The notes: generated from the letters alone by a model not told the origin. Numbered from the stretch's first letter, positions 33,318-39,077 are shown. The stretch: DNA of 64,000 bases from an uncultured cyanobacterium (GCA_963744145.1 CAVUSO010000001.1:1870831-1934830), one strand, 5' to 3'. Numbers and translations: made by a program.

Positions 33318-33334
33318 CAAAGCTTTGATGATTC

Positions 33335-33450
33335 TGTTTCTGTCTAGTCGATGAATTTATGATCACAATCAACCAGGATTTGTAGGGGCAGTTTCACCAA
33401 TCAATTTTGCTCCAAACAGATTACGACAGGCAAGATGCCTGTCCTACTCA
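33335..33450 (-). repeat. copy (inverted) of a ~200-bp dispersed repeat also present at 55230-55460 and 58400-58610, followed by two GACAGGCAAGATGCCTGTC palindromes
   Basis: tttatgatcacaatcaaccaggatttgtaggggc is the reverse complement of gcccctacaaatcctggttgattgtgatcataaa at 58560-58593 and 55380-55413. Confidence 0.6.
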
Positions 33451-33539
33451 TCAACCTGCCCAACTAACACAGATCAATCACAATCTCGGACAGGCAAGAT
33501 GCCTGTCCCACCATTCATGCCAAATCTTACTACACTTCA

Positions 33540-33830
33540 TCAACCACCGAATCCGCTGTATTCTGGTTGATTGGGAGTTTCTACGCTCATTCGATAGTTG
33601 TCAATCGGGTTTTTATGAAAAAGTTGATCCGCTGGAACAACGCCATATCAATATTTTCAGGCTGCATCATAGAATTTTATACGCTCACCTATATAAATTT
33701 ATACGCTCACCTATATAAATTTATACGCGGGGCTATAGAATTTTCTATATTTTCTTTGCTGGTATTATATAAAATATTAATATTTATATAATTACTTTTG
33801 AGAAATAAAAATCAGAGCTAGAGTTCACCC
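33540..33830 (+). repeat. ~290-bp direct repeat, copy 1 (partner at 35040-35330), containing 22-bp tandem repeats ATACGCTCACCTATATAAATTT x2
   Basis: Long shared strings (tattctggttgattgggagtttctacgctcat...gttgtcaatcgggttt..., ...ttttctatattttctttgctggtattatataaaatattaatatttatataattacttttgagaaataaaaatcag) in both copies. Confidence 0.8.
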
Positions 33831-33918
33831 TCCCTTAACGCATAACGAACAAACAGCAATTAGACACTTTTCCGTTAAAATTGAAAGAATATTCACTCCT
33901 AAAACCAACTAGATTGTA

Positions 33919-34149
33919 ATGCTATCCACATCCCGAATTGTCCATAGCGACCCCGACATATTAGGGGGAACTCCAGTTTTTATTGGGACAATAGTCTCCA
34001 TAAAAATCTTACTTGATTACCTCAAAGCAGGTGACTCACTCAATGAATTTCTCGACCATTTCCCCAGCGTCAGTCGTCAACAGGCGATCGCATTAACTCT
34101 AATGATTAGACTCATTCCTATATCGCTAGGAATAGAGAGAGGTGGTTGA
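33919..34149 (+). CDS. DUF433-like small protein (76 aa)
   Basis: DPDILGGTPVFIGTIVSIKILLDYLKAGDSLNEFLDHFPSVSRQQAIAL matches the DUF433 pattern, which is often antitoxin-associated. Confidence 0.5.
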   Translation: MLSTSRIVHSDPDILGGTPVFIGTIVSIKILLDYLKAGDSLNEFLDHFPSVSRQQAIALTLMIRLIPISLGIERGG

Positions 34150-34325
34150 TTTGTTATAGCGGTATTACCAAAATTATTTGTTGCTAAAGATTAATATAGA
34201 TCCAAAATTTCTTGAATTTTACTTTTGAGTTCTGGTAAGTTTTGTTAAACAACAGACCACACAATTTCTAAATCAATCTCAAAATAATTATGAACTAGGA
34301 TATTTCTCATTCCAATAATTTGTGA

Positions 34326-34520
34326 TCAGGAAATTTCGGGGTGTTCTGTTCTGAATTCAGCAGATAAAGCACGGGATGCTTCGCCAATAATTTGCAGGTT
34401 TTGAGTTAACCATACTTGGACTAATTCATTTTGTTCAAAGTTTTGTTTTCCTAACACTGTATAACGTTCAATTCGTTCAATCGCTAGAATATCCCGTAAC
34501 TTTTCTGAGTTGTTTCTCAC
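34326..34520 (-). pseudogene. hepT: truncated HepT-like (DUF86) toxin lacking the C-terminal Rx4HxY catalytic region
   Basis: 64 aa ...LQIIGEASRALSAEFRTEHPEIS then stop. Full HepT proteins are roughly twice this length and continue with the RNase motif. Confidence 0.5.
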
Positions 34521-34807
34521 AATAATTTTGCCTCTTGTATTACTCGTTCTCTAATTCTTTTCCGCAATCCTTTTTCAGTAACAATATCCACTCGATACCC
34601 TAGTAAATCTTGTAAATCCATCAGTAGTCCACCGAGATCAAATAGACTTTTTCCTGGTTCCATTTCTACTAGGAAATCTACATCGCTATTTGCATCAGCT
34701 TCTCCTCGTGCAACTGAACCAAAAATTCGGACATTATACGCTCCATATTTAGCCGCTAGTTGCAGAATTTCATCACGATTATTTTTCAAAACTTCATAGA
34801 TGTTCAT
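34517..34807 (-). CDS. mntA: MNT-type nucleotidyltransferase antitoxin (MntA)
   Basis: [22 protein letters not shown], a GS...DxD minimal nucleotidyltransferase. Start taken at MNIYEVL (34807). Overlaps hepT by 4 nt (ATGA). Confidence 0.75.
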
Positions 34808-36561: not shown

Positions 36562-36564
36562 ATA

Positions 36565-36650
36565 TCGGCGAAGAAGGGTGAAGCATTCGGATATAATATT
36601 AGTTCGTTTAAGTGATAAATTATCGCCCGAATGCTTCACCCCTACGCTTA
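36565..36650 (+). repeat. short MITE copy (same family as 28790-28948)
   Basis: GGTGAAGCATTCGGATATAATATTAG...TTAAGTGATAAATTATCGCCCGAATGCTTCACCC with terminal inverted repeats. Confidence 0.6.
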
Positions 36651-36666
36651 ACTAAAGCGCATTAAA

Positions 36667-37773
36667 TCATAATCTCCTAAGCAGTTGATCGCGAACATAT
36701 TCAATCCGCTTAATTACTTTAGGTCTAGAATTGCTTGCATCTGAAGTAGTATATTCTTTAAACTCCGGAGAATCAAGCCACTTAATTGACTTTGGTTCAA
36801 GATTACTTTTTTCCCTTAAAGCAAGTGCAACACCTACGGAAATTGCTTCAAATCGAATTCTTGGTGTTTTTACATTACCTTTTGATTTACTAAATCCATT
36901 AGGAAAATACTTCTCAACAAAGTCTAGCATTCGGTAAAACTCAGAGCGCATAACATCTTGGTCAATTCCATCATGATTATATTTTTCTAGATATTCATTA
37001 AGAAATTCATTAACCCTTCTATCAAAGTTTTTATAATTATTTAAGTAGGCAAAAAAACGTAGCACAAATTCTTCCGGTTCACGTTTGCGAATTAGTACAT
37101 CTGAGATAGGACATAGTTCTTTAAATTTAGAATTTTTAGCAAGTTCTTCCAGCAAATCCACAAACGGACCAGGAGATATTCCTCTACGTTTCTCCATATC
37201 ATTAAGTTCTACGCTACCAGTATTAATCCGTTCAAACATATCCCGTCTGGTTTCTTCGTCAGCTTTTTCCGTTAGAACAATCATGCGAATAGTAGCACGG
37301 TTGAAGCGTCTCTGTCTTGCTAATGGTAAATCGCTGAATTTGAAATTGTTAAGCTTCTTGAGTTTTTCTAATCCACAAAGTTTGAGTTCGTTATGAAGAA
37401 ATCTGTCTAAAGTACGGATTCGTTGTGTTCCATCAACAATTTCTAACCGAGCTAAATCATTCTCATTATCTTCTTGCTTTGGTCGTAAATCAGCAACAAA
37501 AATATAGGGTATAGGTAATCCTAGAAAAATAGATTCAATAAATTTTGACTGTCGGTTGTCTTCCCAAATCATATCTCGTTGATAGTCTGGTATAAACAAT
37601 TCACTGGTGTCATCATCTAGACCTTCTCTGTATTTCTGAACAAGCACTTCGACTGGATATTCTTTAGTATCATAGTCAACGGTTTTTTGCTTTTCCCGAA
37701 TTTCTATTTCTGCGGCTTCTTTTTGTTCATCTGTAATTTCCGGTTCTGGTGAATTTTTGGTAATTTTTGGCAT
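36667..37773 (-). CDS. DUF262 (ParB-like nuclease / GmrSD N-terminal domain) protein
   Basis: LEIVDGTQRIRTL matches the DGQQR motif of DUF262. 368 aa with no recognisable DUF1524/HNH C-terminal domain. Convergent with the dcm gene. Confidence 0.65.
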   Translation of the reverse strand: MPKITKNSPEPEITDEQKEAAEIEIREKQKTVDYDTKEYPVEVLVQKYREGLDDDTSELFIPDYQRDMIWEDNRQSKFIESIFLGLPIPYIFVADLRPKQEDNENDLARLEIVDGTQRIRTLDRFLHNELKLCGLEKLKKLNNFKFSDLPLARQRRFNRATIRMIVLTEKADEETRRDMFERINTGSVELNDMEKRRGISPGPFVDLLEELAKNSKFKELCPISDVLIRKREPEEFVLRFFAYLNNYKNFDRRVNEFLNEYLEKYNHDGIDQDVMRSEFYRMLDFVEKYFPNGFSKSKGNVKTPRIRFEAISVGVALALREKSNLEPKSIKWLDSPEFKEYTTSDASNSRPKVIKRIEYVRDQLLRRL

Positions 37774-37827
37774 TTTATCCCTAGTTTTAACAAATTTTGT
37801 ACTTTTTTTAGAATTACCAAATCTTTT

Positions 37828-37862
37828 GATAGGATATAGGTGATTGATTACCTATATCCTAA
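37828..37862 (-). terminator. hairpin downstream of argG (GATAGGATATAGG-loop-CCTATATCCTA)
   Basis: 13-bp perfect stem read directly from the sequence. The following tract is only moderately T-rich. Confidence 0.3.
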
Positions 37863-37874
37863 TACATCAAAAAT

Positions 37875-39077
37875 CTACTGACGGTCTTTTTGTGACCAAA
37901 CGCGAGTAGGTAAACCCCAAACGTAAATAAAACCTTCAGCAGCTTTATGATCGAATTGGTCTTCAGCTCCGTAGGTAGCTAAATCAAGACTGTAAAGAGA
38001 ATTTTCTGATTTGCGTCCGACAATATTAGCATTGCCTTTAAATAATTTAATCCGCACAGTTCCCGATACTCGCTCTTGAGTTTGTTGGATAAAAGCATCC
38101 AAGGCACCTTTGAGAGGACTATACCACAAGCCATTATAAACTAACTGGCTGTAAGTTTCTTCAATGCCGCGTTTGTAACGGGTAACATCAGCAGTTAGAG
38201 TCAGACTTTCTAAATCCCGGTGAGCATGAATTAAGACTAACATTGCTGGAGATTCGTAGATTTCCCGCGATTTAATCCCCACTAGACGGTTTTCGATCAT
38301 GTCAATCCGTCCGATACCATGATTACCAGCTAATTCATTGAGTTTGCTAATTAAAGCTACTCCCCCCATCCCTTCACCATTTAGCGCGACGGGAATCCCT
38401 TGTTCAAAAGAAATTTCGATATATTCTGGTTCATTGGGAGTATCTTCGATCGCTTTAGTCATCACAAAGACTTCTTCTGGTGGTTCAGTCCAGGGATCTT
38501 CTAATGGTCCAGCTTCGATCGCAATTCCCAGCAAATTCCGGTCAATACTATAGGGAGAGGATTTTTTGACTGGGGAAGGAATACCGAATTTTTCCCCATA
38601 AGCGATCGTTTGTTCGCGACTCATCCCCCATTCCCTAGCTGGTGCTAGGATCTTGAGGTGGGGGTTTAATGCTCCAATGGAAACATCAAAACGGACTTGA
38701 TCATTTCCTTTACCCGTACAACCGTGAGCGATCGCATCAGCACCATATTCTTCAGCTGCTTTAACTAACTCCTTCGCAATCAGCGGACGAGCAAGAGAAG
38801 TAGCGAGAGGATAGCGATTTTCATAGAGAGCATTTGCTTTGATCGCAGGAAACCCATATTCTTGAATAAAGGGTTCTGTTACTTGAGCAATTAGGGATTT
38901 ACTTGCGCCTGATTTCAGGGCTTTTTCACGGATCGGTTCTAGTTCATCACCCTGACCAAGATCTGCTGCTAGGGTAATTACTTCTTCAACGCCCCACTCA
39001 TTCATTAGGTAGGGGATACACACGGAGGTATCGACACCACCAGAATAGGCTAGTACAACTTTTTTAGCGCGACCCAT
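37875..39077 (-). CDS. argG: argininosuccinate synthase
   Basis: AYSGGVDTS (PP-loop) at the N-terminus; 400 aa, typical type I ArgG. Confidence 0.9.

Follow-up and report, generated by a model that had tools for sequence, protein, structure and literature searches.

A Patchwork of Decayed Defence Genes and a Partial argG Copy, Probably Built in Several Recombination Steps, Downstream of argG in an Uncultured Cyanobacterium

RESULTS

The Region between the MVP Gene and argG

We analyzed a stretch of 64,000 nucleotides (nt) from an uncultured, filamentous cyanobacterium (GCA_963744145.1, CAVUSO010000001.1:1870831-1934830), referred to here as the window. The subject is the 3′ side of argG, the gene for argininosuccinate synthase. 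Between argG and the gene for a major vault protein (MVP) lies a patchwork of ~4.5 kb that consists of broken defence and toxin-antitoxin genes, as identified by Pfam searches of the open reading frames (ORFs) in the window. A preliminary description of this sequence had proposed that an accessory island inserted at the 3′ end of argG and duplicated it. The presence of accessory, foreign DNA directly downstream of argG is confirmed. Pfam recovers the DUF433, HepT-like, MntA-type, Dcm, and DUF262 genes that had been listed there, the MVP gene stands at the other edge of the block, and the ORFs scanned in the block include no integrase, other recombinase, or transposase.

Read in the sense of argG, the gene is followed by a hairpin, a spacer of ~22–35 nt, the DUF262 gene, a hairpin-forming miniature inverted-repeat transposable element (MITE), and a convergent dcm. 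A 126-nt spacer then leads to a repeated element (A2), a fragment of argG, a second hairpin (hairpin′), mntA, and hepT, which contains a nonsense codon. The order continues with a DUF433 stub on the opposite strand, a second copy of the repeated element (A1), a 28-nt stub of the argG fragment, another MITE, and the MVP gene, again on the opposite strand. The block has the pattern unit (cargo Y)-unit (cargo X)-stub. Coordinates are collected in Table 1.

The argG fragment does not mark the far side of the block, as had been claimed, and sits inside it, dividing it into a proximal part of 2.75 kb and a distal part of 1.5 kb. Nor does the argG duplication delimit the whole 4.5 kb: the two argG/hairpin copies flank only positions 35078-37824 (2.75 kb, with A2, dcm, and the DUF262 gene), and mntA, hepT, and DUF433 lie outside the bracketed segment. 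Nothing similar to the 126-nt spacer was found among the fetched loci or at other positions of the window. A 2335-bp contig from an independent assembly of short reads (Logan, L169) is 100% identical to positions 36624-38958, which excludes an assembly artefact at the junction of argG, hairpin, and DUF262 gene.

Table 1. Positions of the Genes, Repeats, and Hairpins between the MVP Gene and argG
Feature	Position	Strand	Basis or remark
MVP gene	30684-33317	+	Pfam; adjoins the other edge of the block
MITE-like dispersed repeat	33351-33562		Copies elsewhere in the window
Repeat U1 (~28-nt argG′ stub and element A1)	33559-33824	+	Direct repeat, paired with U2
DUF433 gene	33919-34149	+	Pfam DUF433, E = 5e-13
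HepT-like gene (hepT pseudogene)	34245-34520	-	Pfam
mntA, MntA-type nucleotidyltransferase	34517-34810	-	Pfam NTP_transf_2, E = 6e-14
Hairpin′ (diverged copy of the post-argG stem-loop)	34837-34898	-	Palindrome core 34852-34883
argG pseudogene fragment, open ORF of 56 codons	34909-35079	-	Alignment to argG, Pfam
Repeat U2 (5′ edge of argG fragment and element A2)	35048-35338	+	Direct repeat, paired with U1
126-nt spacer between A2 and cassette	35339-35464		Includes an orphan C-terminal reading frame, end ~35472
DUF262-(HEPN)-Dcm cassette (dcm, hairpin MITE, DUF262 gene)	35465-37793		Nucleotide identity to other cassettes
dcm, cytosine-5 methyltransferase	35512-36561	+	Pfam
DUF262/GmrSD_N (NsnA-like) gene	36667-37773	-	Pfam, PADLOC
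Post-argG stem-loop (12-8-12 palindrome 37830-37861 and outer stem)	37815-37876	-	Folding
Intact argG, 400 amino acids	37875-39077	-	Pfam Arginosuc_synth and Arginosuc_syn_C, full length

A Partial, Internally Deleted Copy of argG

The fragment corresponds to codons ~209–258 of the 400 in argG, joined in frame (GAC/CAA) to the final five codons and the stop codon. It is paralogous to two segments of the resident gene: 38301-38451, to which positions 34927-35077 are 90.07% identical over 151 nt (E = 1.3e-53), and 37875-37893. The internal deletion is 411 nt long and in frame, and the piece originally duplicated, from codon ~209 onward with the tail, measured ~630 bp. Like every other sequence feature listed in the preliminary description, this similarity greatly exceeds chance; it comprises 151 nt of coding sequence at 90% identity together with a copy of the downstream hairpin. 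The fusion to the last five codons and the stop, with an intact argG retained, is likewise as described. The fragment matches positions 34–84 of the 219 in the Pfam profile Arginosuc_syn_C (E = 2.4e-16), and its ATG falls exactly on the boundary of the homology. It is annotated as a protein of 56 amino acids in the source genome; a protein search with this sequence returned only itself and no other relative.

In nucleotide sequence, the fragment is 90% identical to the resident argG; for other species, identity over comparable lengths does not exceed 73%. No stretch of ArgG is more variable than codons 209–258, where amino acid identity among 119 homologues averages 73%; the fragment and the resident protein are 87% identical there. 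These values, far above those for other species, place the source of the fragment in the same lineage or a near relative, as judged from sequence identity. At residues 226, 255, and 398 (K226, V255, and A398), the fragment has the consensus state of 120 ArgG sequences and the resident protein is derived. The use of such residue states to recognize a donor allele was abandoned, as an old duplicate and a foreign allele fit them alike. Comparison of the two halves of argG with homologues gave no signal of a mosaic.

Codons 213–258 carry approximately six synonymous and six non-synonymous changes; synonymous divergence (dS) is 0.19 and the ratio of non-synonymous to synonymous divergence (dN/dS) is 0.34 (p = 0.04 versus neutrality). 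All of the amino acid replacements in the fragment are conservative. The fragment is unable to make argininosuccinate synthase and is most likely a passenger scar.

The Post-argG Hairpin and Its Copy

A diverged copy of the post-argG hairpin directly follows the stop codon of the fragment, as the preliminary description had it. The two are 77% identical over 52 nt (34847-34898 versus 37825-37876), with a core of 86.5% over 37 nt (E = 2.7e-5). No second match to the hairpin was found in the window at three mismatches or fewer. There are three occurrences of the motif GGATAT-N-ATATCC in the window (0.09 expected). Folding energies are −20.7 kcal/mol for the post-argG stem-loop (z = −4.4) and −22.3 kcal/mol for hairpin′ (z = −3.9), and the 12-bp stem of hairpin′ is preserved in argG-sense RNA by two G.U pairs. 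A role at the RNA level, for example as a 3′ stem-loop of the transcript, is weakly suggested because both copies fold well and the stem of hairpin′ is kept through these pairs. The hairpin was not found at 82 other cyanobacterial argG loci, which rules it out as a conserved feature of argG. Scans for promoters and terminators gave sites no commoner than those in shuffled sequences.

Direct Repeats of Unequal Age

The pair of ~290-bp direct repeats in the preliminary description is real, with refined boundaries (U1 and U2, Table 1). U1 and U2 share blocks of 130 nt at 98% and 112 nt at 96% identity, separated by 22/23-nt tandem arrays that differ in copy number. In U1, ~28 nt that match the 5′ edge of the argG fragment without a difference are followed by A1, which has 2.7 tandem 22-nt units and an AT-rich tract. 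A2, likewise with an AT-rich tract, has the 23-nt repeat ATAGAATTTTATACGCTCACAAG in 3.7 copies. The A1 array (33669-33728; unit ending in CCT) is homogenised internally and is unlike the A2 array (35158-35242; unit ending in CAAG), whose copies are 100% identical. Arrays that are homogenised within themselves yet differ from each other point to recent slippage or concerted evolution. The iteron-like motif of element A occurs seven times, versus 0.06 expected. Element A has no match in 72,556 plasmids, a phage collection, a metagenome scan for the iteron pattern, or Rfam, and it was not found upstream of DUF433 homologues in 80 metagenome loci. Nor does A derive from argG.

Each 290-bp repeat starts on its left with the 5′ edge of the argG fragment. 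Element A is therefore joined to argG codon ~209 at two places, 35077/35078 and ~33589/33590. Both copies of the join have an identical argG′ edge that carries the variants specific to the fragment. A1 and A2 differ at 7 of 211 positions (3.3%), the fragment and argG at 15 of 151 (9.9%), and the two hairpin regions at 12 of 52 (23%). The divergence of the A pair is lower than that of the argG pair (Fisher p = 0.013) and that of the hairpin pair (p = 2e-5). Copies made in a single event would be of equal age, and the unequal ages seen here require several events or gene conversion. Since the join occurs twice and A1 and A2 differ by only 3.3%, the structure reflects several steps and not one insertion; it was clearly formed in at least two stages.

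MITEs at the Breakpoints

MITEs of two families are located at breakpoints. The MITE of the preliminary description, at the MVP side of the block, belongs to a MITE-like family of ~200-bp elements with three copies in the window, the others being at 58426-58596 (81%) and 55240-55421. It contains two GGACAGGCAAGATGCCTGTCC palindromes; this palindrome has 13 matches in the window (0 expected), including those at 8118, 51229-51333, 55576-55640, and 58333-58480. Neither terminal inverted repeats nor a target-site duplication are obvious in this family. On its right, the element adjoins the 28-nt argG′ stub of U1, and the end of this outermost stub coincides exactly with that of the MITE consensus on its right side. 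The second family is represented by the hairpin MITE (36568-36650, ~85 nt) and a relative at 28805-28950, and its inverted termini are clear. A 21-nt inverted match between 33363-33383 and 35045-65 is part of the MITE consensus in all three copies, and we therefore regard it as coincidence or at most microhomology.

A Horizontally Spreading DUF262-HEPN-Dcm Cassette

The DNA next to argG is related to a compact cassette. We define a three-gene DUF262-HEPN-Dcm cassette from five cyanobacterial loci, in Microcoleus (L083), a JGI metagenome (L084), and Planktothrix (L085–L087), and from a phage locus (L168). At the five loci, the cassette (~3.0 kb) has a DUF262 gene, an overlapping HEPN gene (RiboL-PSP/MAE_28990), and a convergent dcm, and it is 81–85% identical to the window cassette in nucleotide sequence. 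The Microcoleus, metagenome, and Planktothrix cassettes stand in three unrelated contexts, and none of the five loci has flanking repeats or a hairpin of the post-argG kind. The same gene order is found in Moraxella catarrhalis phages (e.g., Mcat24; L168 1832-4729), and homologues of the DUF262 protein at 85–90% identity occur in many cyanobacterial genera. Because the nucleotide identity of 81–85% exceeds that of argG between the same genera, the cassette is, by this comparison, one that spreads horizontally.

The window copy falls short of the three-gene arrangement. DUF262 and dcm are present and the HEPN gene is gone; in its place, 105 nt (36562-36666) with the hairpin MITE separate the stop codons of the two genes. 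A MITE-associated deletion removed the HEPN gene here. The dcm-side end of the window cassette is also shorter than at the other loci.

PADLOC matches of the DUF262 protein are NsnA, along the full length (E = 1.2e-60), and PD-T4-2_A (E = 2e-33). In the Menshen system, a ParB-DUF262 protein of the NsnA kind precedes the ATPase NsnB and the effector NsnC (PMC12065111). The locus shares with the DUF262-centred defence modules Menshen NsnABC, PD-T4-2, and GmrSD (PMC12065111) the DUF262 protein, which is paired here convergently with a cytosine-5 methyltransferase. Unlike those modules, it has no NsnB ATPase, NsnC, or DUF1524 nuclease: the neighbours of the DUF262 gene are dcm and argG, and the partner in its relatives is the HEPN gene that is deleted here. 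A DUF433 gene beside the Planktothrix cassette proved to belong to another subfamily and is unrelated to that of the window. Beside the cassette, at ~11127, the Planktothrix contigs L085 and L086 differ by a 298-bp indel with a DUF433 gene and a 40-amino-acid PIN-toxin stub.

Remnants of Toxin-Antitoxin Genes

The distal cargo is decayed as well. In hepT, an in-frame TGA (34326-34328) replaces a conserved Trp codon that precedes the catalytic RNILVH (Rx4H) motif. The gene as encoded scores 28.9 bits with the HepT-like Pfam model, versus 86.3 bits with read-through of the TGA, and the NCBIfam HepT_toxin model matches only the part after the stop. MntA matches PADLOC PDC-S09 (E = 7.5e-40) and scores 43.9 bits with NCBIfam MntA_antitoxin, below the cut-off of 60 bits. 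The arrangement resembles the type VII MntA-HepT system, in which the nucleotidyltransferase antitoxin gene lies upstream and overlaps the start of hepT in the usual order; it differs in that HepT stops before the Rx4H motif and that MntA is under the equivalog cut-off. The HepT toxin is inactivated, and the mntA antitoxin gene appears intact.

Homology of the antitoxin-like DUF433 gene to its family ends at 34092 (codon ~58), i.e., the gene is truncated at its 3′ side, and no DUF5615 toxin partner was found after it. A full DUF433-DUF5615 pair is present in L089 (3001-3535). With the HEPN gene missing, hepT interrupted by a nonsense codon, and DUF433 truncated, the block is a set of decayed defence and toxin-antitoxin modules. 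Its predicted toxic partners (HEPN, HepT, and DUF5615) are lost, and the predicted protective ones (Dcm, MntA, and DUF433) are kept.

Comparison with Other argG Loci

The closest ArgG among 5.8 billion proteins is 88% identical, and none is above this value. The two nearest relatives at that level have the order argG-DedA-Hpt-Ycf34-CCA and no synteny with the window. An ArgG scan of genome contigs for an empty site gave 80 loci (best identity 86%), none of them syntenic or usable as a comparator. A second argG piece is found only at the present locus among 83 argG loci, the other 82 (L001–L082) being cyanobacterial. At 36 of 73 cyanobacterial loci, argG is directly followed by a gene with a DedA/VTT domain, and no match to this gene was found anywhere in the window. 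The preliminary description took the locus for an integration hotspot; what speaks for a high turnover at the 3′ side of argG here is solely the count of at least six independent modules or insertions within 4.5 kb.

Other Features of the Window

A second defence islet at 13796-17853 contains a PARIS-like AriA/AriB pair (AAA_15 and DUF4435) and a PDC-M38 A/B pair (an AbiL-like ATPase and DUF3226). An IS607-type element (5542-7527) encodes TnpA, with a MerR-type helix-turn-helix and a resolvase domain, followed by an ORF of 444 amino acids with weak Cas12f/TnpB-like matches. An ORF for a class II ribonucleotide reductase (8212-11490) contains an intein with a LAGLIDADG homing-endonuclease domain. 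The MVP homologue is full length (877 amino acids, with all vault repeat domains) and adjoins a gene for a Tle1-like phospholipase (28969-33317 for the two). The idea of a replication terminus or dif site in the window was discarded: GC skew merely follows gene orientation and there is no terminus signal.

DISCUSSION

Our preferred reading is that the block is a multi-step recombination patchwork, a scar within a decaying defence islet, and not one island delivered by an integrase. We put its probability at roughly 55%. Of the original proposal that an island duplicated the 3′ end of argG, the partial copy with its hairpin, the direct orientation, and the retention of the intact gene stand; the single insertion does not. 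In the scheme that we favor, which follows from the geometry of the locus, a ~630-bp segment, bounded by argG codon ~209 and a point ~15 nt beyond the hairpin, would first have become a direct repeat, leaving the intact argG proximal and a 5′-truncated copy distal. This could have occurred by a single-crossover (Campbell-type) insertion of circular DNA that carried an argG 3′ segment or by tandem duplication. Either route, through host homologous or illegitimate recombination, would yield the novel join of A to codon 209. The distal copy then lost 411 nt in frame and diverged, unless it was divergent already, by 10% in the coding part and ~23% around the hairpin. Much later, as the second join and the 3.3% divergence of A1 and A2 show, the unit that bears the join was re-duplicated, by an unequal homologous exchange in our reading, a repeated join being the hallmark of such an exchange, and the outermost unit was reduced to the 28-nt stub at the MITE. 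The cargo is not the same in the two units, and it is decaying. The proximal unit has the mobile DUF262-HEPN-Dcm cassette, which would have taken the place of earlier cargo and which lost HEPN by the MITE-associated deletion; in the distal unit, MntA stands beside a HepT inactivated by its nonsense codon, and DUF433 is cut short.

The layout expected of a Campbell-type or tandem-duplication join is seen in the window: an intact gene proximal, an insert, and a 5′-truncated distal copy that runs in the same direction. The novel join is of a unique kind and recurs in each unit. The locus departs from such events in the 10–23% divergence of the copies, the 411-nt in-frame deletion, the unequal ages, and the differing cargo. 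Several points weigh against the patchwork reading. Two units with different cargo are not predicted by simple tandem duplication, and cargo replacement must be added to it. The homology of both argG 3′ flanks ends only ~15 nt beyond the hairpin in both units, and this shared end could represent a defined site instead of random breakpoints. With a dN/dS ratio of 0.34 and an open frame, the fragment may be under some constraint or may stem from a functional allele of foreign origin. There is no clear microhomology at the junction of the 411-nt deletion. Finally, the order of events is our reconstruction from the locus itself.

A rival is a site-specific island at the 3′ end of argG that has since lost its integrase, in which the fragment and hairpin′ would be the displaced copy from one attachment (att) side. 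As in islands that target 3′ ends, the block directly follows a housekeeping gene, the terminal codons and the hairpin are directly repeated, and the gene itself is kept intact. The 12-8-12 palindrome resembles the core-site architecture of recombinases, and cargo starts ~15–35 nt from the hairpin in both units. We nevertheless consider this origin unlikely. In contrast to known islands of this type, the duplication starts in mid-gene and there is no integrase among the ORFs scanned in the 64-kb window, where the only recombinase is the IS607-type TnpA (5542-6099), 27 kb from the block. The repeats are long, non-contiguous (codons 209–258 and the tail), and 10–23% diverged, with no short identical core. 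They bracket just 2.75 kb, and the cassette stands at its five other loci free of flanking repeats and hairpin. Another rival is a retrocopy: homology that stops ~13–15 nt past the hairpin is what the 3′ end of an argG mRNA would give, if it were reverse-transcribed from beyond a terminator hairpin with a jump over 411 nt and the cDNA then integrated, and the copy does combine a 5′ truncation with an internal skip. This origin is nonetheless very improbable, as the ORFs scanned include no reverse transcriptase, the duplicated join of A to codon 209 is left unexplained, and a divergence of 10% needs an old event or a foreign template.

The two units, with their shared join, ~97% identical backbone, and different cargo, raise the question of whether an element family lacking an integrase is involved, possibly derived from a plasmid, with A as backbone, a captured argG arm and hairpin, variable cargo, and host recombination behind argG. 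Element A resembles an iteron plasmid origin in its three to four tandem 22/23-nt repeats with the core TTTATACGC, its adjoining AT-rich tract, the excess of its motif, and its homogenised arrays. That A1/A2 are younger than the argG pair would fit an element arm set against a host gene. Unlike iteron origins, the window has no rep gene and no plasmid match, and the internal homogenisation of the arrays is like that of a minisatellite; A is equally unmatched in the phage collection and the metagenome pattern scan. The cassette travels elsewhere without A, the hairpin, or the argG arm, and a second argG piece is at none of the 82 other argG loci. Such a family is thus quite unlikely, and it is doubtful to a higher degree that the two units are copies of one undescribed modular element that inserts behind argG by host recombination and swaps its cargo. 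We are just as doubtful that the fragment was retained as useful, whether as promoter or leader region of mntA-hepT or as an expressed micro-protein of 56 amino acids. The 56-codon frame is open, with its ATG at the homology boundary and an in-frame deletion; the low dN/dS, the conservative substitutions, and the hairpin′ stem kept by G.U pairs on the sense strand can be read in this way, and a promoter-like site (34918-34890) lies just upstream of mntA. Against this, such sites are not enriched (14 versus 16.4 expected), and the downstream toxin gene is already dead. The fragment is the only case of its kind, and no small ORF homologous to it was found; residues 209–258 form no independent domain, and the substitution statistics are based on just 12 changes.

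For the organism, the argG fragment has no foreseeable effect on arginine metabolism. The analysis delimits a compact DUF262-HEPN-Dcm cassette, common to several cyanobacterial genera and Moraxella phages, that may merit functional study. If the patchwork reading is correct, the locus would be an example of how cyanobacterial defence islets assemble and then decay without dedicated integrases, through host recombination, the reuse of one illegitimate join, MITE-associated deletions, and the loss of toxic components.

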